Shown here: one piece after another, positions 10,148 through 44,193 of the stretch
Position numbering within the stretch: position 1 is the stretch's first letter
Layout of the letters: the number at the start of each line of letters is the position of its first letter
DNA from: an uncultured Mycoplasmatota bacterium
GTDB taxonomy: Bacteria; Bacillota_I; Bacilli_A; RF39; UBA660
Direction of reading: 5' to 3'
Assembly (NCBI GenBank): GCA_900542735.1
Contig: UQOS01000004.1
Location: forward strand, 35-64,034
DNA: 64,000 nucleotides
Notes under the pieces: generated by a model
The model's database searches: none
What the model saw: the letters and a program-made list of their open reading frames with translations, nothing else
What the model was told of the DNA's origin: nothing
Translations under genes and position numbers: made by a program

Positions 10148-10352
10148 CGACTATTCTTCCATAAGGACGAATAATCGCGGTACCACCTTAATTTATAGCA
10201 TAACACTATACACTTAAACTCTTAACGCGAGTAACGGATAACTATAATTATCAGCTCCAGAACCATTTATTATTGTTCCTCTATATCTACTTTCACCTAA
10301 CTAGACTCTCTAAAATAGATTTCCAATAACTCTTTCCTTCAAAACATTTATG
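10148..10352 (-). ncRNA. T-box riboswitch leader upstream of dut-metG
   Basis: On the minus strand: AATTAAGGTGGTACCGCG (the conserved T-box sequence), immediately followed by a GC-containing hairpin and a U7 terminator. An upstream AGAGAG GA-motif and a candidate AUG specifier (AAAUGGU). A TTGATG-17-TATAAT promoter lies just after the spoVT stop. Confidence 0.5.
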
Positions 10353-17488: not shown

Positions 17489-17534
17489 ATTATCACCTAC
17501 TTACGAATAAAACTATCATTTTTTATTAAAAATT

Positions 17535-17548
17535 ATTTCCCGGGAAAT
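17535..17548. promoter_or_regulatory. Noc-binding-site palindrome ATTTCCCGGGAAAT within AAAATTATTTCCCGGGAAATAATC (pth-rsmI intergenic)
   Basis: Perfect match to the B. subtilis Noc-binding-site 14-mer. A CCCGGG is otherwise very rare in this AT-rich sequence. Confidence 0.7.
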
Positions 17549-17552
17549 AATC

Positions 17553-21946: not shown

Positions 21947-23626
21947 TTAATTAATTGATACCATATCTTCACCAAATAACTTAATAGCCTGTGATTTGAT
22001 ATCACCACTATTACTATTTCGTACTGGTAATGTATCTTTATCACTATCCCTATCAATTGTAACATATTGATAAAGAACATGATTATTCATATTTTGAATA
22101 TATTTTTCTTTTTCTTGATTCCACTCATCATCAGTTAATAAAGCAACGTCATAATGTTTCTGATAAATTTTTTCTAATAATTTCTGAATTTTTAAAATCA
22201 TAGAAAATCCCCTATTAATCATGGATTCATAATTAAAAGATAAAATAACTTCTCCCAATCCAACTGCTCTTATCTTACCATCAGATATAAAACAAGCAGC
22301 AGCCCCATATTCACTATCTAATGCATAATCATTTAAGGAATTCCATTTAGATTCAAACATTCTTTTCTCATTTTTATCAGCTCTGGCAAAACAATTATTA
22401 ACAATCATATCATTTATTTTACCATTTTGTACCAAATTATCATCAGAAATTATTTCCCGGGAAATAATTTTACTTTCTAAATGAGAATTATTATCATTAA
22501 TATCTATTTTTTCTGTATTTTTTGTATCTTCACTACTCTTAGGAATAGATATATCACTTTTAGCTTCTATTTTTTCATTATTTTGTATATTAGCATTCTT
22601 ATTCATATAATTTAAAAAATAAATTTCCACAATTGTTTTAATATCAGAGCTAAACTTAATTTCTTTTAATAAATCATTTAAAAGAATAGAAAAAGAAATT
22701 AAAAAATTAGAATCATATTGAGAATCATTATTAATATAATAATTTATTATTAGGTCTTTACACAAATATAATAAGTCTTGAACAAATAAAACAAAATCTT
22801 TTCCATTATCATATATAGAATCAAGAAAATTAATCGTGTTAGAAATATCACTTGCTTGAATATAATTCAAAAACTGAATTTTTTGTTCTTTGGAAACAAT
22901 ACCATTTACTTTTTCAAAATCATCAATAGTAATACTAGAGTTAGAATATGCATTTAATTTATCTAACATACCAACAGCATCTCTAAGTCCACCATCAGAC
23001 AAATTAGCTATCATTTCTAATACATTATCTTCAATCCTAATATTTTCAGCTTCACAAATATATTTTAATCTGTTAACAATATTTACATTACTAATTCTAT
23101 GAAATTCAAAACACTGACATCTTGAAATAATTGTAGTAGGAACCTTATGTAAATCAGTAGTAGCTAAAATAAATATTACATGCTCTGGTGGTTCCTCAAG
23201 TGTTTTTAATAAAGCGTTAAATGCTCCAATAGATAACATATGTACTTCATCAATAATATAAACTTTATATTTTAGTTGATTTGGAACTAAGTTAACCTTA
23301 TTTTTTATTTCACGAATTTCATCTACTCCATTATTAGAAGCAGCATCTATTTCAATAATATCTGGACAAGATCCTTCATTAATAGAAACACAATTTTCAC
23401 ATTTTCCACAGGCATCTCCATCTTCCAAATTTGTACAATTTACAGCTTTAGCTAAAAGTTTAGCAATTGAGGTTTTTCCAATTCCTCTTGGTCCAGAAAA
23501 CATATATGCATGACAAACTTTATTGTTTAATAAAGCGTTTTTCAAAATTTGTATTACTACATTTTGGCCAATTACATCATTCAATGTAGACGGTCTATAT
23601 TTACGATATAAAGCTTGATAGGACAT
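21947..23626 (-). CDS. dnaX: DNA polymerase III subunit tau/gamma
   Basis: GPRGIGKTS Walker A, a Cys4 zinc module and clamp-loader domains. Confidence 0.9.
   Translation of the reverse strand: MSYQALYRKYRPSTLNDVIGQNVVIQILKNALLNNKVCHAYMFSGPRGIGKTSIAKLLAKAVNCTNLEDGDACGKCENCVSINEGSCPDIIEIDAASNNGVDEIREIKNKVNLVPNQLKYKVYIIDEVHMLSIGAFNALLKTLEEPPEHVIFILATTDLHKVPTTIISRCQCFEFHRISNVNIVNRLKYICEAENIRIEDNVLEMIANLSDGGLRDAVGMLDKLNAYSNSSITIDDFEKVNGIVSKEQKIQFLNYIQASDISNTINFLDSIYDNGKDFVLFVQDLLYLCKDLIINYYINNDSQYDSNFLISFSILLNDLLKEIKFSSDIKTIVEIYFLNYMNKNANIQNNEKIEAKSDISIPKSSEDTKNTEKIDINDNNSHLESKIISREIISDDNLVQNGKINDMIVNNCFARADKNEKRMFESKWNSLNDYALDSEYGAAACFISDGKIRAVGLGEVILSFNYESMINRGFSMILKIQKLLEKIYQKHYDVALLTDDEWNQEKEKYIQNMNNHVLYQYVTIDRDSDKDTLPVRNSNSGDIKSQAIKLFGEDMVSIN
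22452..22465. promoter_or_regulatory. Noc-binding-site palindrome inside the dnaX coding sequence (AGAAATTATTTCCCGGGAAATAATTTT)
   Basis: Perfect 14-mer plus extended arms. On the minus strand it encodes ...ISREIIS... in the DnaX linker. Confidence 0.65.
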
Positions 23627-24145: not shown

Positions 24146-24160
24146 CTAACAATAAAAAAA

Positions 24161-24232
24161 GTGCACATAAATATAAAATGTTAAGGCTGCTATCTTCCAA
24201 TCCTGACCTGGTTCCATCAATATTTATTGCAC
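24161..24232 (-). ncRNA. ffs: Small (4.5S-like) signal recognition particle RNA
   Basis: Minus strand: GUGCAAUAAAUAUUGAUGGAACCAGGUCAGGAUUGGAAGAUAGCAGCCUUAACAUUUUAUAUUUAUGUGCAC. It carries the domain-IV hallmark ACCAGGUCAGGA...GAAG.AGCAGCC. The closing stem GUGCAAUAAAUAU/AUAUUUAUGUGCAC is followed by U7. It sits next to tadA/dnaX, as scr does in B. subtilis. Confidence 0.5.
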
Positions 24233-24266
24233 GTATATATAATAATATATTTTTTCAAAAAAAACA

Positions 24267-24284
24267 ATGTTTCACGTGAAACAT
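24267..24284. promoter_or_regulatory. parS site 1 (ATGTTTCACGTGAAACAT)
   Basis: Perfect 18-bp palindrome matching the ParB/Spo0J parS consensus tGTTtCACGTGAAAca. Confidence 0.8.
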
Positions 24285-24378
24285 TGTAAATTTTTACTTA
24301 AATTAAGTTTTTTATGTATCAAAAAGTAATTTTTTTAAATTTTAAGTCAAAAAAACATTAAATATTTGAATATTTTGT

Positions 24379-24421
24379 ATGTTTCACGTGAAACATTGTG
24401 GAAAATTATTTACCGGGAAAT
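24379..24421. promoter_or_regulatory. Composite: parS site 2 (24379-24396), TGTGGAAAA DnaA-box-like (24397-24405), Noc-site variant ATTTACCGGGAAAT (24408-24421)
   Basis: Read directly from the sequence. Confidence 0.75.
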
Positions 24422-24695
24422 AATTTTTAGTATATTATTCATATTTTTTCATAAAAGTGTGAATAAAAATAACTGTTAAATACTAATTAATTTTTTTTAA
24501 ACATAAATGAAGTTAGTTTCATTATTAGTAGAATAAATTATTAAATATTAAAATTATATAAAATAATTAACATTACACCACTCCCAACTATTAGCTTATC
24601 AGCAAATAAATATAATAATTATTAAATATATCATAAATATTGATTATTACATTTTTATATTTAAAATTTTGATAAAAATCAAATCAATATTATCT

Positions 24696-24713
24696 ATGTT
24701 TCACGTGAAACAT
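24696..24713. promoter_or_regulatory. parS site 3
   Basis: Perfect ATGTTTCACGTGAAACAT. Confidence 0.8.
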
Positions 24714-25000
24714 GTGCATAACTAATCTTTAATAATTGAATAATATATTAGTTATAATTATATATTAAATAGTACTTCGATTACAGATCAAAATTTAAAA
24801 TAACTTATTTCATTTTAAAATATGATTATAATATTTGAAAATATTGATAATTAATTAAAAAAATAATTATTTGTTTTTAATTATAATAAATAAAATCAAA
24901 TATATATTTAATTTTTATTTAAATAATGTCTTTTGAAATAAATATTATTTAATATTGTAAGTAACAAATTAAACTATTAAAAAAGGTACATAAATTATCT

Positions 25001-25043
25001 ATGTTTCACGTGAAACATTGTGGAAAATTATTTCCCGGGAAAT
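25001..25043. promoter_or_regulatory. Composite: parS site 4 (25001-25018), TGTGGAAAA (25019-25027), perfect Noc-binding site ATTTCCCGGGAAAT (25030-25043)
   Basis: Read directly from the sequence. The Noc-binding site is embedded in AAAATTATTTCCCGGGAAATAATTTTT. Confidence 0.8.
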
Positions 25044-25336
25044 AATTTTTGGTACAATGTTGATAACTTCCTAAAAAATTAATAAAAATAAGCTATTGAT
25101 ATTAATTCATTTTCTAAACATAAACAAATTATATTATTTGCTTTATTAATATAATTAATTATTAAGCATAAATATTTTAATTACTTATTAAAATTAAGAT
25201 TATATAAAAATAAATATGCAATTCCAACTATTAATTTATTAATATATTTACATAATTATCATTAAATACATTATAAGTATTAGTAATTATATTGATTATG
25301 ACATTTCTTGATTTAATATTTTAATAAATATTATAT

Positions 25337-25378
25337 ATGTTTCACGTGAAACATGTGGAAAATTATTTTCCAGGAAAT
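25337..25378. promoter_or_regulatory. Composite: parS site 5 (25337-25354), TGTGGAAAA (25354-25362), Noc-site variant ATTTTCCAGGAAAT (25365-25378)
   Basis: Read directly from the sequence. Confidence 0.7.
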
Positions 25379-25610
25379 AATTTTAATGCATATTTATTAT
25401 TTTTTTAATAAAATTTATGATTTATTAGATTAAAAATAATCACTATCATTAATTAAAACATTAATTAATAATATCTAAATTTTTAAATAATAATCAAATA
25501 AAATAAAAAAATATATTTAGTATTTGTTTGAATAGTATTATTTAAAATAAATACTATTTGAACATTGTAGTAATAAACACTAAATAAATTTAAAAAGATA
25601 CATAAATATC

Positions 25611-25653
25611 TATGTTTCACGTGAAACATTGTGGAAAATTATTTCCCGGGAAA
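25611..25653. promoter_or_regulatory. Composite: parS site 6 (25611-25628), TGTGGAAAA (25629-25637), perfect Noc-binding site (25640-25653)
   Basis: Read directly from the sequence. Confidence 0.8.
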
Positions 25654-25712
25654 TAATTTAAAAAAAAATACATATAAATATATGTATAATTTTTCAATAG
25701 CTTTGTTTTTAG

Positions 25713-25744
25713 TTATCCACAATGCAATAGTTTCACGTGAAACA
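25713..25744. promoter_or_regulatory. Consensus DnaA box TTATCCACA (25713-25721) next to parS site 7 (AGTTTCACGTGAAACA, 25729-25744)
   Basis: Read directly from the sequence. Lies 15 bp downstream of the gyrA stop. Confidence 0.7.
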
Positions 25745-25757
25745 TAAAAGAATGTAC

Positions 25758-28394
25758 CTAATCAGATACATTCTCATTATTAACTTCATCATTTACTGAA
25801 TCTGCTTCCAAATTTTCCTCTTCGTCTTTAATAATAGTAGAAACAGTAGCCACCTTTTGATCATCTTTCAACTTGATAAGTCTAACACCCTGCGTTGCTC
25901 TACCTAAAGTAGAAATTTGTTCCATAGACATTCTCATAATAATACCACTGTCAGTAATAATTACAAGATCTTCCTCACCAGTAACAGCTTTTAATGATAC
26001 TAACATACCATTCTTTTCAGTAACATTTAATGCCTTAACACCCTTGCTACCCCTATGAGTTAAACGATATTCATCAATTGGTGTCTTCTTACCATAACCT
26101 TTTTCAGTAACGATCAACACTTGTTCGTTATCAACAATTACTTCTCCACCAATAACTTTAGCATCACCAAGGTCGATACCACGAACTCCAGAAGCTGTAC
26201 GACCCATAATACGAACTTCGTTTTCCACAAATCTAACCATTCTACCATTAGAAGCACCAATAATAATCTCATTTTCCCCAGTTGTTTTACGAACAGCTAT
26301 CAATTCATCATCATCTTTTAAACTAATAGCTATCTTTCCACTACTTCTAATATTATCAAATTCAGATAAATCAGTTCTCTTAACAATACCATTCTTCGTA
26401 ATAAAGAATAAATAATTATAATCATGTTCCTTGGCAGTAAGTGAAATAATTGAATTAATCTTTTCATCTTTTTCCACAGGTAGTAAGTTAACTATTGGCA
26501 AACCTTTGCTTTGTCTGCTAAATTCTGGAACCTCATAACCCTTCATTCTATATACTTTTCCTTTATTACTAAAGAATAAAATATAATCATGTGTCTCCAT
26601 ATTAAGCATTTTTTCAACAAAATCCTCTTCATTAGTAGACATACCCTTAATACCTACTCCACCACGATTTTGAGTACGATATTCATCTACTAACATACGT
26701 TTAATATAACCTCTATTAGTTAATGTAATTAAAGTGTTTTCAACAGGAATAAGTGATTCATCTTCAATATAATCTATTGCCGTCATATCAATTTTCGATC
26801 TTCTATCATCACCATATTTACGCTTAATTTCAAGCATTTCTTCTTTAATAATACTTAATACTCTCTCTTCAGAAGCTAAAATTGACTTATAATCAGCTAT
26901 TTTAACTAGTAAATCATTAAGTTCAGCCTCTACTTTTCCACGCTCTAAACCAGTCAAACGGCGTAATCTCATTTCAAGAATACTGTTAGCTTGAATCTCA
27001 TCTAAACTAAATCTAGACATTAAATTATTTCTAGCCTCGTCATCACTCTCAGCTGCTCTAATAATATGCACAACTTCATCAATATTATCAAGAGCAATGC
27101 GTAATCCCTCTAAAATATGTACTCTTTCTTCTGCTTTTCCTAAATCATATCTAGTTCTTCTAATAATTACTTCTTTTTGATAATCAATATACTTAGAAAT
27201 AATATCTTTGATGCCTAAAGTTCTAGGTGTTTGACCATCTAATACTAAGAAAATAATACCATAAGAAATTTGAAAATTAGTATGTTTATACAACTGATTT
27301 AAAATTACTTGAGCATTTGCATCTTTCTTTAAAGTAATCGTAATCTTAATACCATCTTTTAAATCAGTATGATAATCTGTAATACCTTCTATTGTTTTGT
27401 TATGAACTAACTCTGCAACCTTATTTTTAAGTTCCATAGTATTAACACCATAAGGTACCTCATCAATAATGATACAACTATGATTACCATGTTCTTCAAT
27501 AGTAGCTTTACTACGAATCGTAATAGAACCCCTACCAGTTTCATAAGCTTTCTTAATACCTGAATTACCAAGAATGATACCACCAGTTGGAAAATCAGGT
27601 CCTTTAATATATTCCATCAATCCCATAGTATCAATATCAGGATTATCAATGTAAGCAACACAACCATCAATAACTTCACTTAAATTATGAGGGGGAATAT
27701 TAGTAGCCATACCAACAGCAATTCCCATAGAACCATTTACAAGTACATTAGGAAATCTAGAAGGTAAAACAACAGGTTCCTTTCTCGTTGCATCAAAGTT
27801 ATCTTCCATATCAACTGTATCTTTATTAATATCTCTTAATAACTCTAGTGATATTTTAGCAAGTCTTGATTCAGTATAACGCATAGCTGCAGCGCCATCA
27901 CCCTCAATATTACCAAAATTACCATGTCCATCAATTAACATATATCTTTGATTAAAGTCCTGTGCTAAACGTACCATAGCTTCATAAATAGAACTATCTC
28001 CATGTGGGTGATAATTACCCATAACTTCTCCGACCGTTTTAGCGCTCTTCTTATGAGGTTTATCTGGTGTATAACCTGATTCATACATAGACCATAAAAT
28101 TCGTCTATGAACAGGCTTTAAACCATCTCTAAGGTCAGGTAAAGCACGAGATTTAATAACACTCATAGAATATTCCATAAAAGAAGTCTTAACTTCATCC
28201 ACTATATTATTGTGGTCTAATCTATCTCTTTCATGAAAATAACCACTAAAATTACTATTTGACTTTATCTTATCAGCATCTTCTTGAGAATTATTATCAT
28301 TAACAGTAATATCAGAACTATTATCAGTATCATTATTACTATTATCTTCACTAGATCTAGCTAATAATTCATTTAAATCATCTTTATTGTCCAT
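25758..28394 (-). CDS. gyrA: DNA gyrase subunit A
   Basis: 878 aa. The active-site Tyr region AAMRYTE and GyrA-box beta-pinwheel repeats. Confidence 0.95.
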   Translation of the reverse strand: MDNKDDLNELLARSSEDNSNNDTDNSSDITVNDNNSQEDADKIKSNSNFSGYFHERDRLDHNNIVDEVKTSFMEYSMSVIKSRALPDLRDGLKPVHRRILWSMYESGYTPDKPHKKSAKTVGEVMGNYHPHGDSSIYEAMVRLAQDFNQRYMLIDGHGNFGNIEGDGAAAMRYTESRLAKISLELLRDINKDTVDMEDNFDATRKEPVVLPSRFPNVLVNGSMGIAVGMATNIPPHNLSEVIDGCVAYIDNPDIDTMGLMEYIKGPDFPTGGIILGNSGIKKAYETGRGSITIRSKATIEEHGNHSCIIIDEVPYGVNTMELKNKVAELVHNKTIEGITDYHTDLKDGIKITITLKKDANAQVILNQLYKHTNFQISYGIIFLVLDGQTPRTLGIKDIISKYIDYQKEVIIRRTRYDLGKAEERVHILEGLRIALDNIDEVVHIIRAAESDDEARNNLMSRFSLDEIQANSILEMRLRRLTGLERGKVEAELNDLLVKIADYKSILASEERVLSIIKEEMLEIKRKYGDDRRSKIDMTAIDYIEDESLIPVENTLITLTNRGYIKRMLVDEYRTQNRGGVGIKGMSTNEEDFVEKMLNMETHDYILFFSNKGKVYRMKGYEVPEFSRQSKGLPIVNLLPVEKDEKINSIISLTAKEHDYNYLFFITKNGIVKRTDLSEFDNIRSSGKIAISLKDDDELIAVRKTTGENEIIIGASNGRMVRFVENEVRIMGRTASGVRGIDLGDAKVIGGEVIVDNEQVLIVTEKGYGKKTPIDEYRLTHRGSKGVKALNVTEKNGMLVSLKAVTGEEDLVIITDSGIIMRMSMEQISTLGRATQGVRLIKLKDDQKVATVSTIIKDEEENLEADSVNDEVNNENVSD

Positions 28395-33304: not shown

Positions 33305-33403
33305 TGTGGAAAATGTGGAAAACTTCATATTTACTTTATTTTAACACATATTTTTAAAAAATAGGTTGTGGAAAACTTTTTGATTTTTTAAACTTTATCC
33401 ACA
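33305..33403. promoter_or_regulatory. oriC DnaA-box cluster (dnaA-dnaN intergenic): TGTGGAAAA x3 (33305, 33314, 33367) and TTATCCACA (33395-33403)
   Basis: Four DnaA boxes within 100 bp of an AT-rich region. The arrangement mirrors the Bacillus incC/oriC2. Confidence 0.8.
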
Positions 33404-34804
33404 TCATACTATTTCTTTCTTTAATTTTTCAATAATATTAGCTAATTCTTTATTTGTTAAAACTTCTTTTTCAATCTTTTCTACAGAGTGCATTACTGTC
33501 GAATGATCTTTTCCACCAAAGTCTATTCCTATTTTAGGAAATGATTCATTAGTAAGTTTTCTACATAAATACATAGCTACTTGTCTTGGAAATGCTAGAT
33601 TTGAGCTTCTTTTTTTTGATTTTAAATCTTCAACTGATACTTGAAAATATTCTGCTACAATTCTTTGAATTCTATTAACACTATTTTTTTCACTATATCC
33701 TTTGTTTACAAAGTCTTTTAATACATCAACTGCTAAATCTAGTGTAATTTCAGCACCACCCATAATTGTGGAATAAGCAAGTAGCCTCGTAATAGAACCC
33801 TCAAGGTGTCGTACATCACTTCCTACATTAGAAGCAATATATTCAATGACATCATCAGGAATATTTTTATTAATAGACTCCCCTATTATCTTTTTCTTAA
33901 TAATAGCTACTCTTAATTCGAAGTCTGGTGGAAAAATATCAGCTGTTAATCCCCAACAAAATCTAGTCCTTAAACGGTCTTCCAAAGATTTTAAATCATC
34001 TGGCGATCGGTCTGATGAAATAATAATTTGTTTATTTTCATCATATAACTTAGTAAAAGTATTAAAGAATTCGTTTTGTGTTTGTGGCGCACTTTGAAAA
34101 AATTGAATATCATCAACGATAAGTACATCAACACTTCTATATTTATTTTTAAAATAAGATACATAATCAAAATTTTTACCGTATTCATCTTTTTTATTAA
34201 TTCCTAAAAAGTCTGTAATGAATTGGTCACTTGTCACATATAAAACTTTTTTACTAGAATGTTCTGTAATATAATTACCAATTGCGTGCATTAAATGTGT
34301 TTTTCCTAATCCACTATTTCCATATATAAATAAAGGATTATATAGTACTCCAGGATTTTCAGCTACTTCTAAAGCAGCAGCCTGAGCAAATTTATTAGTA
34401 TTACCAACAATAAAGTTTTCAAAAGTAAATTTCTTATTTAAATTAGAACAAAAATTAGTATTTTCAAAATGATGAGTGGTATTAGTTTCTTTATTATTTT
34501 GAGTATACATAGGACTGATAGGACTATTATCTTCTTGATTATTCTTTAAATCATCTATTTCTTCCTGTGTATAAAACTCAATATCAACATTATCTCCTAC
34601 TACATTACTAAGATTATTAACGATTAAATCATAATATTTAGTAGTTAAATGCTTTTTATACATTGCCATTGGAACAATAATTTTACAAACACCATTACTA
34701 TATTCATAAAGTTCAGTATTTTTAAACCAAGTTTCAAAAGACAGAGGATTCATTTCGGTTTTTATGCTGTTTAAAAAATTAGACCATATTATTTTTACAT
34801 TCAC
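33404..34804 (-). CDS. dnaA: Chromosomal replication initiator DnaA
   Basis: AAA+ Walker A GNSGLGKTHL. C-terminal DnaA signature HTTVMHS..KIEK. Confidence 0.95.
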   Translation of the reverse strand: MNVKIIWSNFLNSIKTEMNPLSFETWFKNTELYEYSNGVCKIIVPMAMYKKHLTTKYYDLIVNNLSNVVGDNVDIEFYTQEEIDDLKNNQEDNSPISPMYTQNNKETNTTHHFENTNFCSNLNKKFTFENFIVGNTNKFAQAAALEVAENPGVLYNPLFIYGNSGLGKTHLMHAIGNYITEHSSKKVLYVTSDQFITDFLGINKKDEYGKNFDYVSYFKNKYRSVDVLIVDDIQFFQSAPQTQNEFFNTFTKLYDENKQIIISSDRSPDDLKSLEDRLRTRFCWGLTADIFPPDFELRVAIIKKKIIGESINKNIPDDVIEYIASNVGSDVRHLEGSITRLLAYSTIMGGAEITLDLAVDVLKDFVNKGYSEKNSVNRIQRIVAEYFQVSVEDLKSKKRSSNLAFPRQVAMYLCRKLTNESFPKIGIDFGGKDHSTVMHSVEKIEKEVLTNKELANIIEKLKKEIV

Positions 34805-34862
34805 CTATTATCACCCCTGACTCCAGTTAATTCAAAATTGCAAGTCTTATTTTAACTTAAAA

Positions 34863-35029
34863 CTGTGGAAAAATAAATAGGTATTTTTGTATTTTTTCTA
34901 ATTCACAATTAATCCACAACTTTTTCCACAACTAAAATACATATAGAATAAGATAAATACAAACTTTTCCACATTTTAAAAAAAATTAAATTCACAGTGT
35001 GAAAAAAGTTTTAAACAATGATGTGGAAA
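34863..35029. promoter_or_regulatory. oriC DnaA-box cluster upstream of dnaA: TGTGGAAAA (34863), TAATCCACA (34909), TTTTCCACA (34921, 34964), TGTGGAAAA (35021), plus A/T-rich tracts
   Basis: At least five boxes within 170 bp between dnaA and rpmH, as in the Bacillus oriC1/incA-B. Confidence 0.8.
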
Positions 35030-35065
35030 ATGTTGAAAACTATGAAAATGGACCAATTTTAAATA

Positions 35066-35078
35066 ATTTTCCGGAAAT
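35066..35078. promoter_or_regulatory. Noc-site-like variant ATTTTCCGGAAAT (one C:G pair short) inside oriC, 3' of the DnaA box at 35021
   Basis: AATAATTTTCCGGAAATAATT. It repeats the DnaA-box-then-Noc-site arrangement seen in the array. Confidence 0.4.
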
Positions 35079-38605: not shown

Positions 38606-38658
38606 AATTATAAAAAATGTTATATAAATACAAAAATCATAATTTAAGGTCAAAAATT

Positions 38659-38672
38659 ATTTCCCGGGAAAT
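38659..38672. promoter_or_regulatory. Noc-binding-site palindrome in the mnmE-mnmG intergenic region (AAAATTATTTCCCGGGAAATAATTTTTT)
   Basis: Perfect 14-mer with extended arms. Confidence 0.7.
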
Positions 38673-38749
38673 AATTTTTTTCTATTTCTACTAAAAAAAT
38701 TAGAAATATAGTGTATAATAATTCCAGAAAAAAGAGGAAGTGTATCAAA

Positions 38750-41416: not shown

Positions 41417-42442
41417 ATGGATAGAGAAGTTGTAGACTTATACCTAGATGATATTATTCCTAACCGTTTTCAACCACGTGAAGTTTTTAATGAAGAAGCA
41501 TTGAGAGAACTATCAGCTTCTATTAAAGAACATGGAGTAATTCAACCAATTATTGTTAGAAAAATTGGCGATAAATATGAAATTATAGCTGGAGAAAGAA
41601 GATATAAAGCATCTACTATGGCTGGATTAACTAAAATTCCTGCAATTATTAGAAATTTAGATGATAAAGAGGCTTCTAAAGTAGCATTACTAGAAAACTT
41701 ACAAAGAAAAGACTTATCAGCAATAGAAGAAGCAAGAACATATCAAAAAATTCTAGAATTAGACTCTATGACACAAGAAGAATTAGGTCGTACTATGGGA
41801 AAATCTCAAGCAGCTATTGCCAATAAAATGCGTTTATTATCTTTACCAGATGAAGTACAAGAAGCATTATTACAAGATAAAATATCAGAACGCCATGCTA
41901 GAAGTTTATTAAATCTAGATACTAGTGAAGAACAAATCACAATGTTAAGAAAAATTATTTCAAACCGTATGACTGTAAGAGAACTTGATAATGAAATTAG
42001 AAATATAAAAGGAGAAGTTACTAGTCCATCTGTTATGGCACAAGATAATATTGCAATTGTTGAAGAAAGTGGTCCTAAAGTAGAAGTTAGTAAACCAGAC
42101 ATAAATCCTATTATTAGTGAACCTAAAGAAGAAGAAAATGATGATGATTGGTTTAATATACCATTACCACCTCCTAACCCTATTGAAAGTTTAGAGGAAG
42201 ATGAAATAGAAGAAGAACCAGTTAAGATTGTGAATGTAGAAAGACCAAAACAACCTGAGTCAGATTTTAAAATGATAGATGAACTATTAAAATCTACTAA
42301 GACATATAGTTTAGAAGATATCGTTCATGAATTAAAGAATGTAGCAGAGAAGTTTAATAAAAAAGGATTCCATTTAAATTTAGAAGAAAAAGACTTCGAA
42401 AACAATTATCAAGTCATCATTAATATTGAAAAAGATAAATAA
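41417..42442 (+). CDS. noc: Nucleoid occlusion protein Noc-like (ParB paralog)
   Basis: Adjacent to rsmG, as Noc is in Bacillus. IPNRFQPR, GERR and QAAIANKMRLLSLP HTH motifs. No N-terminal amphipathic extension. An acidic, Pro-rich C-terminal tail. Confidence 0.65.
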   Translation: MDREVVDLYLDDIIPNRFQPREVFNEEALRELSASIKEHGVIQPIIVRKIGDKYEIIAGERRYKASTMAGLTKIPAIIRNLDDKEASKVALLENLQRKDLSAIEEARTYQKILELDSMTQEELGRTMGKSQAAIANKMRLLSLPDEVQEALLQDKISERHARSLLNLDTSEEQITMLRKIISNRMTVRELDNEIRNIKGEVTSPSVMAQDNIAIVEESGPKVEVSKPDINPIISEPKEEENDDDWFNIPLPPPNPIESLEEDEIEEEPVKIVNVERPKQPESDFKMIDELLKSTKTYSLEDIVHELKNVAEKFNKKGFHLNLEEKDFENNYQVIINIEKDK

Positions 42443-42533: not shown

Positions 42534-43322
42534 ATGGGGAAGATAATTTCATTAGTAAATCAAAAAGGTGGAGTAGGAAAAACAACAACAAGTATTAATC
42601 TTTCTGCATCACTGGCATATTTAGGAAAAAAGGTATTATTAATAGACCTTGACCCACAGGGTAATACAACGACAGGGGTAGGTATTAATAAAGGCGATAT
42701 TACAAATAGTGTACATGAGGTATTAACTGGTAAATGTGAAATAACAGAGGCAATTATTAAAACTAAATACAAAAATCTTTATGTTTTACCAGCAACAATT
42801 AACTTAGCTGGATTAGATATGGAATTAATAGAAAAGAGTAAATCAAGTCAAGGATTTGCCAAAAATGCACAGTTAAAAACTTACTTAGATCCTATTAAAG
42901 ACTTATTTAATTACATTATTATTGATTGCCCACCATCACTAGGACTAATTACAACCAATGCTCTAACAGCATCAGATTCTGTAATTATTCCTGTTCAATG
43001 TGAATTCTTCGCTCTAGAAGGTATTACTCAATTGTTAAATACTATTATGTTAGCACAGAAAAATTTAAATCCAAACCTTGATATTGAAGGTGTTTTACTA
43101 ACAATGTTAGATTCAAGAACTTTATTAGGGTTAGAAGTTGTAGAAGATATAAGAAGATTCTTTAAAGAAAGAGTATACAACACTATCATTCCAAGATTAA
43201 TAAAGTTAACAGAAGCTCCTTCACATGGAAAACCAATATTAGCTTATGACCCAAAACATAGGGCAACAGAAGCTTATATAAATTTAGCAAAGGAAGTGAT
43301 TGCAAGAAATGGAGACATCTAG
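42534..43322 (+). CDS. soj: Chromosome partitioning ATPase Soj/ParA
   Basis: Deviant Walker A KGGVGKTT. Confidence 0.85.
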   Translation: MGKIISLVNQKGGVGKTTTSINLSASLAYLGKKVLLIDLDPQGNTTTGVGINKGDITNSVHEVLTGKCEITEAIIKTKYKNLYVLPATINLAGLDMELIEKSKSSQGFAKNAQLKTYLDPIKDLFNYIIIDCPPSLGLITTNALTASDSVIIPVQCEFFALEGITQLLNTIMLAQKNLNPNLDIEGVLLTMLDSRTLLGLEVVEDIRRFFKERVYNTIIPRLIKLTEAPSHGKPILAYDPKHRATEAYINLAKEVIARNGDI

Positions 43323-44193
43323 AAGAAAAGCTCTAGGTAGAGGCCTAGAAGAATTATTCAATAATGAACCAATGGATTATGAAAAAATAGAAGAAAAAAT
43401 AGTAGAGACAGCTAACAATGAAGAAATTGTAGAAATTCCTTTATCAGAATTAAGAAGTAATCCTTATCAGCCTAGAAAAAACTTTGATGATAATGCTCTA
43501 CAAGAATTAGCAAATTCTATTAAAGAACATGGTGTATTTCAACCAATTATTGCTAAAAAAAGTATCAAAGGCTATGAAATAATAGCTGGTGAACGACGCG
43601 TAAAAGCATCTATTCTAGCCGGAAAAACTACGATACCTGCTATTATTCGTGATTTTTCAGATCAAGATATGATGGAAATAGCTCTTTTAGAGAACTTACA
43701 AAGAGAAAATCTAAATGCTTTAGAAGAAGCAATGGCTTATAAAAAGTTATTAGATGAATTACATTTAACTCAAGAATCTCTTGCTGAAAGATTAGGAAAA
43801 AGTAGAAGTCATATCACAAATATGTTAGGATTATTAACATTACCAGAAGAAGTAAAAGATATGATTATGGACGGAAAAATTTCTATGAGTCATGCCCGTG
43901 TCCTAAGTAAAATAGACAACAATGAGAAAATAAAAGAATTAGCTGATAAAATCATAGTAGATGGCCTAAGTGTTCGTGAAATAGAAGATTTATCACATAC
44001 AGATACAACGATTGAAAAGAAAAATACACAAGTAAGACATGATACGAATCGTAATGAGTATAAGGTAATAGAGGAAGAATTATCTGAGAAATTAGGAACA
44101 AAAGTAAAAATTAAAAATAATAAAATGGAACTATATTTTGCTAATTCTAACGATTTAAATAGAATCTTAGAAATTATAGGACTAGATAACTAA
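43300..44193 (+). CDS. spo0J: Chromosome partitioning protein Spo0J/ParB
   Basis: ALGRGLEELF N-terminus, GERR and LENLQRE motifs, HTH. Confidence 0.85.
   Translation: MQEMETSRRKALGRGLEELFNNEPMDYEKIEEKIVETANNEEIVEIPLSELRSNPYQPRKNFDDNALQELANSIKEHGVFQPIIAKKSIKGYEIIAGERRVKASILAGKTTIPAIIRDFSDQDMMEIALLENLQRENLNALEEAMAYKKLLDELHLTQESLAERLGKSRSHITNMLGLLTLPEEVKDMIMDGKISMSHARVLSKIDNNEKIKELADKIIVDGLSVREIEDLSHTDTTIEKKNTQVRHDTNRNEYKVIEEELSEKLGTKVKIKNNKMELYFANSNDLNRILEIIGLDN

Follow-up and report, generated by a model that had tools for sequence, protein, structure and literature searches.

The DNA analyzed here is a 64,000-nucleotide stretch of contig UQOS01000004.1 (the window) from an uncultured Mycoplasmatota bacterium of the RF39 lineage. 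Between gyrA and the gene for the signal recognition particle (SRP) RNA, the window contains a gene-free array that combines parS sites, Noc-binding sites (NBS) and DnaA boxes. The G+C content of the interval is 15%, and the absence from it of any open reading frame (ORF) longer than 48 aa and of any Rfam match rules out a hidden gene or RNA. The array is located at 24.3-25.7 kb on the left replichore, 7.6-10 kb from the DnaA-box clusters of oriC, and is origin-proximal with respect to both these clusters and the skew minimum (~33.3-35.0 kb). Beyond oriC, the gene order is mnmE, mnmG, rsmG, a ParB paralog, parA and parB.

The 18-bp palindrome ATGTTTCACGTGAAACAT occurs in six perfect copies, starting at 24267, 24379, 24696, 25001, 25337 and 25612, and a seventh copy at 25728, TAGTTTCACGTGAAACAT, has two mismatches in the 18-mer and one in the 16-bp parS. 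Compared with the parS palindrome TGTTNCACGTGAAACA, six of the 16-mers are perfect and one has a single mismatch. Start-to-start spacings are 112, 317, 305, 336, 275 and 116 bp. Besides these seven, the 64 kb contain no site within three mismatches of TGTTTCACGTGAAACA; dinucleotide shuffles of the window gave 0 matches to the 18-mer and, with three mismatches allowed, still just 0.28 parS sites. Four of the parS sites head a 43-bp module, in which parS, 1 nt, TGTGGAAAA, 1 nt and the 16-bp NBS TATTTCCCGGGAAATA follow one another; TGTGGAAAA is the complement of the DnaA box TTTTCCACA. Scored against ATTTCCCGGGAAAT, the NBS of the array are perfect at 25030 and 25641, with one mismatch at 24408 and two at 25365. 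In the whole window this motif is found five times without mismatch, once with one and once with two, against 0.14 expected.

The array is built from two and a bit copies of a degenerate unit of ~620 bp, with spacings of 609-652 bp within the repeat families. Units A and B are 71% identical over aligned columns, and the 16-bp parS cores inside them are intact. Drift of the duplicated spacers around intact parS sites is what selection on the sites rather than on the spacers would produce. The initial annotation of this stretch had described a gene-free, AT-rich tandem duplication of about this period between gyrA and the SRP RNA gene and tadA, about 8 kb from oriC, in which the palindrome is parS, a DnaA box directly follows four of the copies and a consensus box flanks the last; all of this stands. 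It had counted seven perfect 18-bp palindromes instead of six, and its last two spacings (274 and 118 bp) need correction, the first four being right. Its account of the NBS as exact or one-base variants holds for three of the four sites and fails for that at 25365.

Table 1 Coordinates of the array, its component sites and the associated features of the window.
Feature	Position	Strand	Description
Whole gene-free array	24244-25757	.	7 parS, 4 NBS, 7 strict DnaA boxes
gyrA	25758-28394	-	Flank of the array
gyrA terminator hairpin	25775-25748		At the end of gyrA
SRP RNA	24146-24243	-	Other flank; tadA and dnaX come after
parS 1	24264-24287	.	24-bp palindrome holding perfect 16-mer 24268-24283; no DnaA box, no NBS
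Tripartite module 1	24380-24422	+	parS 24380-24395; DnaA box TTTTCCACA 24397-24405 (-); NBS 24407-24422 TATTTACCGGGAAATA, 1 mismatch
Extra DnaA-type box	24458-24466	-	TTATTCACA, in spacer
parS 3 and box	24697-24721	+	parS 24697-24712; abutting DnaA-type box TTATGCACA 24713-24721 (-); no NBS
Tripartite module 2	25002-25044	+	parS 25002-25017; DnaA box 25019-25027 (-); perfect NBS 25029-25044
Tripartite module 3	25338-25379	+	parS 25338-25353; DnaA box 25354-25362 (-); NBS 25364-25379 TATTTTCCAGGAAATA, 2 mismatches
Tripartite module 4	25613-25655	+	parS 25613-25628; DnaA box 25630-25638 (-); perfect NBS 25640-25655
DnaA box and parS 7	25713-25744	+	Perfect box TTATCCACA 25713-25721; parS 7 25729-25744 AGTTTCACGTGAAACA, 1 mismatch; just downstream of the gyrA terminator
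Isolated NBS	17534-17549	.	Perfect, intergenic, within 24-bp palindrome AAATTATTTCCCGGGAAATAAT
Isolated NBS	22451-22466	.	Perfect, within dnaX coding sequence, part of a 24-bp palindrome
Isolated NBS	38658-38673	.	Perfect, between mnmE and mnmG
oriC (reference)	33305-35030	.	DnaA-box clusters 33305-33403 and 34864-35030 flank dnaA; GC-skew minimum near 35000
Noc-position ParB paralog	41417-42442	+	341 aa; presumed NBS binder
ParA/Soj ATPase	42534-43322	+	
Canonical ParB/Spo0J	43300-44193	+	Presumed parS binder

The window encodes a candidate protein for each of the two site types. ParB has the ParA-contact peptide LGRGLEELF at its N terminus, R173, a small residue (S) at position 201 and a ParB_C dimerisation domain, and together with its cognate ParA it has the features of a chromosomal ParABS system. 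The paralog gene lies between rsmG and the soj-spo0J pair, the position of noc. Four positions switch ParB from parS to NBS, being Q, K, K and R in Noc and R, T, A and G in ParB, and a lysine at just one of positions 179 and 184 is enough to allow NBS binding (Jalal 2020). The recognition region of the paralog, GKSQAAIANKMRLLSLP...ISERHAR, reads Q-K-S-R (Q173, K179, S184, R201), as expected for NBS specificity, and these residues are invariant across 20 aligned homologs. Among solved structures, Noc proteins match the paralog best. The modeled DNA-binding domain gives template modeling (TM) scores of 0.90-0.91 to the Noc-NBS complex 6Y93 versus 0.66-0.75 to the ParB-parS complex 6S6H; only this domain and the C-terminal domain of the AlphaFold model were used, as the N-terminal domain is poor owing to a shallow alignment. 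The cytidine triphosphate (CTP)-binding motifs GERR and ENLQR are retained.

The two ends of the paralog distinguish it from known Noc proteins. Only 7 residues precede its IIPNRFQPR box, and B. subtilis Noc is longer here by 25 residues, among them the amphipathic membrane helix; residue 28 of B. subtilis Noc aligns to residue 3 of the paralog, and the ORF is not extendable upstream. The N-terminal amphipathic membrane-targeting helix that defines Noc is therefore absent from the paralog. None of the 20 aligned homologs has the N-terminal extension, nor do ~143 of the best 150 representatives from 50%-identity clusters of a 1.84-billion-protein library. Because the homologs start alike, the absence of the helix is not an annotation error. 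Every Noc homologue studied by Adams 2015 has the amphipathic helix, which is required for function, since Noc is inactive when ten residues are deleted. Towards the C terminus, the paralog has a long, acidic, disordered linker that carries the motif DDDWFNIPLPPP, followed by a conserved domain of ~55 aa that is modeled with confidence as a folded unit and shows a weak match to the end of the Noc family model. Its relatives (P0255-P0404) form a very large family of 335-798 aa in total length, with disordered linkers that vary greatly in length and composition and are acidic or rich in N, Q or P.

From its sequence and modeled domains, the protein is a predicted Noc-type, NBS-specific paralog rather than a nucleoid occlusion protein, and we name it accordingly because the membrane helix is missing. 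The initial annotation was right that the window encodes both Spo0J and a Noc-like paralog, the latter with Noc-type specificity residues; the nucleoid occlusion role it attached to the paralog is unsupported without the helix. Distant clade members (L211-L214) keep the order mnmE-mnmG-rsmG-noc-type-parA-parB-DUF951-abgT. Two of them, L211 and L212, have HD-domain genes between rsmG and the noc-type gene, and mscS after parB.

A motif scan of one genome per species (185,579 species) for a parS core at most 30 bp from an NBS core gave at least 120 stretches, and of the 120 listed at least 116 sit in the gyrA-tadA-dnaX interval. By tblastn, gyrA is present in 96 of the listed stretches, dnaX in 93 and tadA in 84; the three or four located elsewhere have no NBS flanks. 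The listed carriers are nearly all uncultured low-G+C Bacilli from animal and human guts, labeled Bacilli, Tenericutes, Mollicutes or Erysipelotrichaceae and including Clostridium sp. CAG:710, Candidatus Scybalousia and Candidatus Onthousia. Their GyrA proteins are 57-91% identical to that of the window, which indicates that the pairing at this locus is old. The comparison of the gyrA-tadA interval in relatives that the initial annotation had proposed thus shows that more than 100 species share the parS-NBS pairing at this locus. Matches in Clostridia and Streptomyces (L029, L072, L036) were set aside, as they have no NBS flanks and are about as many as expected by chance. In the two contigs of Clostridia metagenome-assembled genomes (L029 7470-7530, L072 7590-7625), parS lies beside a TTTCCCGGGAAA core, in one of them just upstream of parA.

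Among 81 loci that cover the whole gyrA-tadA gap, the density within it is 4.26 per kb for parS and 2.54 per kb for NBS, compared with 0.09 and 0.12 in the flanks, so that NBS density is ~20-fold that outside. Many species have tandem arrays in which parS and NBS strictly alternate, with periods of 56, 62, 74, 75, 83, 84, 105 or 119 bp; the closed 1.31-Mb genome L081 (OZ006981.1) has ten 83-bp units, L052 has nine of 75 bp and L031 six of 84 bp. The differing periods and unrelated spacers indicate that the pair was amplified repeatedly and independently. A second sample, not chosen by motif, was obtained from metagenome contigs by RecR alignment and comprises ~18 clade loci that span the gap. 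The gap holds a parS cluster in 16 of the ~18, NBS as well in ~11, and tight pairs or alternation in six or seven, including an alternating array with a 119-bp period (L148); several contain parS without NBS. Higher-G+C outgroups in the same sample have neither a parS cluster nor NBS in the gap.

The array itself was followed in ten contigs (L121-L130) from independent human-gut assemblies of the same species, found by an exact match of the neighboring YbaB protein. All ten have it between gyrA and tadA, in a gap of 392-1849 bp with 3-8 parS and 1-4 NBS, and in every one of them each internal parS adjoins a DnaA box. In L125, only three parS and one NBS are left. Gap length differs between strains by gain or loss of modules. 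Recovery of the array from ten assemblies shows that it is not an assembly artefact, and that its copy number is strain-variable.

Outside the array, in ~62 kb of the window, three more perfect NBS are found, at 17535, 22452 and 38659. The one in dnaX and the one in the pth-proximal intergenic region are kept in ten of ten same-species assemblies. An NBS within dnaX is also found at L132 8140, L137 8028, L162 8138, L164 8073, L143 2021, L146 1418 and L158 4007, and is present even in clade members whose DnaX is only ~40% identical. This persistence suggests that the dnaX site is a selected Noc-type site within a gene.

Our data suggest that the array is probably an origin-proximal chromosome centromere that combines loading sites for two ParB-family proteins in one composite zone. 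The parS array is assigned to a centromere because its sites are exact matches to a well-characterised site and both ParA and ParB are present; loading of the paralog at the adjacent NBS is suggested by its specificity residues and by the co-evolution of the sites. ParB dimers would first assemble at parS and, once closed into CTP clamps, spread across the AT-rich stretch, forming a partition complex that is acted on by ParA and probably SMC. The Noc-type paralog would nucleate at the adjacent NBS, as well as at the scattered NBS elsewhere, and co-occupy the DNA of the array. Having no membrane helix, the paralog falls outside the known mechanism of Noc and is unlikely to anchor DNA at the membrane in the manner of Bacillus Noc. 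A more likely role for its long acidic disordered linker and conserved C-terminal domain would be to recruit a further factor to the centromere or to modulate one there. In the subclade of the window, DnaA would bind the box wedged between parS and NBS. With the sites only 1 nt apart, the three proteins can hardly bind independently, and their occupancies probably depend on one another, whether ParB, DnaA and the Noc-type protein compete or cooperate. Such dependence would couple initiation status to centromere status.

Several observations weigh against a centromere loaded by both proteins. By sequence comparison, the four composite modules of the window descend from one duplicated unit, and their number alone is not independent evidence. 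Some clade species (L152, L153, L170, L171) have arrays of parS only. At the loci compared, the parS cluster is nearly clade-wide, and the NBS partnership is frequent but apparently dispensable. A DnaA box adjoins 9% of clade parS sites, compared with a background of 1.2%, and is found at 22 of 118 loci, several with a perfect TGTGGATAA, which are mainly those of relatives of the window. The three-part module described in the initial annotation thus extends to relatives only in part: the parS cluster is general and NBS are frequent, whereas NBS are not universal and the box is confined to a subclade. The distance between parS and NBS varies from 17 to 49 bp, which argues against a rigid protein-protein geometry, and a fixed order of NBS relative to gyrA is ruled out (53 versus 28 loci). 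In the paralog, position 184 is S and not K, and its exact combination QKSR was not found in the supplements of Jalal 2020, nor was the RMTS of the window ParB. Variable spacing and order favor co-loading over a rigid complex. Nearest-NBS distances are bimodal, with peaks at 25-27 and 35-37 bp; this is only suggestive of helical phasing, as the loci are phylogenetically related and the range is limited by the motif scan.

The derivation of the modules from one unit, the sufficiency of parS-only arrays in some species and the variable spacing and order would also be expected if the array were an ordinary multi-parS centromere, of a kind common in bacteria as parS clusters are, with NBS and DnaA boxes as passengers copied along with the unit and without functional coupling to ParB loading. 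We consider this unlikely. Passengers would not be expected to stay perfect or near perfect while the spacers around them drift, nor to be amplified with parS independently in many species, in units of different length with unrelated spacers. With one selected pair per locus left out, an NBS is still no more than 50 bp away from ~40% of the parS sites, and the enrichment of NBS in the gap points in the same direction.

The DnaA boxes allow a different view, namely that the array is primarily a cluster of the datA or Bacillus DnaA-box cluster type that titrates or regulates DnaA, with parS present because centromeres sit near origins. Boxes of the TTATNCACA type are indeed clustered here outside oriC: the array contains seven strict TTWTNCACA boxes over 1.5 kb, compared with 0.2 in shuffled sequence, and is the densest cluster of the window after oriC. 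Seven of the ten oriC boxes are TTTTCCACA, the same variant as in the array modules, so that what the initial annotation had called a one-mismatch box is the standard DnaA box of this organism and credible as such. The boxes retained at internal parS sites in all ten strains would fit this view as well. It is nonetheless improbable as the primary role, given the restriction of parS-adjoining boxes to a minority of loci, the nearly clade-wide parS cluster and the many arrays with plain AT spacers and no box. A second origin is ruled out: the array is not beside dnaA and has no GC-skew switch, the cumulative skew still falling through 24-26 kb and turning at ~35 kb. In the oriC region, an NBS-like palindrome, ATTTTCCGGAAAT (35066-35078), is one C:G pair short, has a half-site spacing unlike that of a true NBS and lies just upstream of the TTGACA hexamer preceding rpmH.

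It is very unlikely that a single dual-specificity ParB binds both types of site, which would make this a pure ParB array and leave the paralog to act elsewhere. G201 is conserved in extant ParB, and dual-specificity variants mostly have T or S at this position (Jalal 2020); the window ParB, which reads ..KISMSHAR.., has S201. This residue is confined to close relatives of the window (86-100% identity), and the more distant clade ParBs have G201, which rules out dual specificity as a general explanation. The window ParB further has M and T at positions 179 and 184, without the permissive K or R, and a dedicated, highly conserved paralog with Q173 and R201 is present.

We regard as highly improbable that the sites act mainly as operators, for silencing or insulation by ParB-family proteins of the SRP RNA/tadA/dnaX unit or of read-through from gyrA. 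ParB spreading can silence nearby genes, and the palindrome of the first parS lies 21 bp upstream of the SRP RNA 5' end, with T8 behind it on the minus strand, where the palindrome is scored as an intrinsic terminator; it may overlap the SRP RNA promoter. In other species, arrays sit elsewhere in the gyrA-dnaX interval (between tadA and dnaX in L081), and seven to ten or more sites far exceed the needs of an operator. An assembly artefact or mobile repeat element, which the repetitive, extremely AT-rich sequence and the gap of just 392 bp in one strain assembly might suggest and which the initial annotation had named, as a collapse of repeats, among the possible objections, has a negligible probability: the array is flanked alike in all ten independent assemblies, its locus does not change across more than 100 species, the unit has no further copies elsewhere in the 64-kb window, and the array contains neither a transposase nor terminal repeats. 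The window has a single other Rfam match, a T-box leader at 10160-10351 (-), which is unrelated to the array.

Beyond a centromere loaded by two ParB-family proteins in the window, a wider scenario is possible, which we put forward tentatively. A large clade of small-genome gut Bacilli may use a two-clamp centromere, at which a Noc orthologue that never had or has lost the membrane helix would be loaded on NBS placed between parS sites. This orthologue would act at the centromere instead of the membrane, perhaps in a state ancestral to nucleoid occlusion, as a second ParB that binds the centromere. In the lineage of the window, the 43-bp module would then make the initiator and both clamps compete or cooperate, coupling initiation to segregation.

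ParB and Noc are a textbook case of a duplicated DNA-binding protein gaining a new site and a new job, and the two are thought to act apart, ParB at few origin-proximal parS sites and Noc at scattered NBS on the membrane. Here, both site types are paired and amplified together in over 100 species, and the Noc orthologue is without the feature that gives Noc its function. The sharing of one loading zone by two CTP-gated clamps can thus be studied in a natural setting, and the idea that Noc started out as a second protein of the centromere becomes testable. The 1-nt distance between NBS and DnaA box raises the possibility of a DNA-level basis for the unexplained link between Noc and DnaA in S. 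aureus. The pairing also provides a simple sequence signature for finding the centromere in these unculturable genomes.

All parts of the array are of known kinds, and it is their arrangement that is new. The initial annotation had held the arrangement to be undescribed; we found no description of parS-NBS pairing or of a combined parS-DnaA box-NBS element in the searchable literature, whereas clustered parS as such are well known. The closest counterpart is the Spo0J(ParB)/parS system of B. subtilis with Soj(ParA), which has the same 16-bp parS, origin-proximal sites and the gene order rsmG-noc-soj-spo0J, and whose Spo0J shares the ParA-contact peptide and C-terminal dimerisation domain with the window ParB. 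In B. subtilis, about ten parS sites are dispersed over a large origin domain, mostly inside genes. In contrast, all sites of the window lie in one gene-free array of 1.5 kb, most of them fused to other sites. The Noc/NBS systems of B. subtilis and S. aureus have the identical NBS, TATTTCCCGGGAAATA, and the window paralog in the noc position shares Q173, K179, R201 and the CTP motifs with Noc. It differs in having no amphipathic helix, S184 and a long disordered linker, with which relatives reach nearly 800 aa in total length, and the NBS of the window are concentrated beside parS rather than only scattered.

Links between the initiator and these systems have precedents. S. aureus Noc restrains DnaA-dependent initiation, and contact at DnaA-bound origin DNA has been proposed (Pang et al. 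2017); that study defined no composite DNA element, whereas NBS and DnaA box are 1 nt apart in the window. In Caulobacter crescentus, DnaA boxes lie within the parS centromere and link the initiator to segregation (Mera et al. 2014, cited via PMC6399470). Compared with the centromere as described there, which belongs to another phylum, the box of the window is 1 nt from parS, is repeated in every unit and is flanked on its far side by the site of a second ParB-family protein. Chromosomal parS counts near the origin range from 1 to 20-23 in various species according to a review, which gives 20-23 for Streptomyces coelicolor and Listeria innocua. These two likewise have many parS sites near oriC, but, per the review, spread over tens of kb and of parS only. 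The arrays of the clade are compact, some of them in tandem with periods of 56-119 bp, and have a second site type interleaved.

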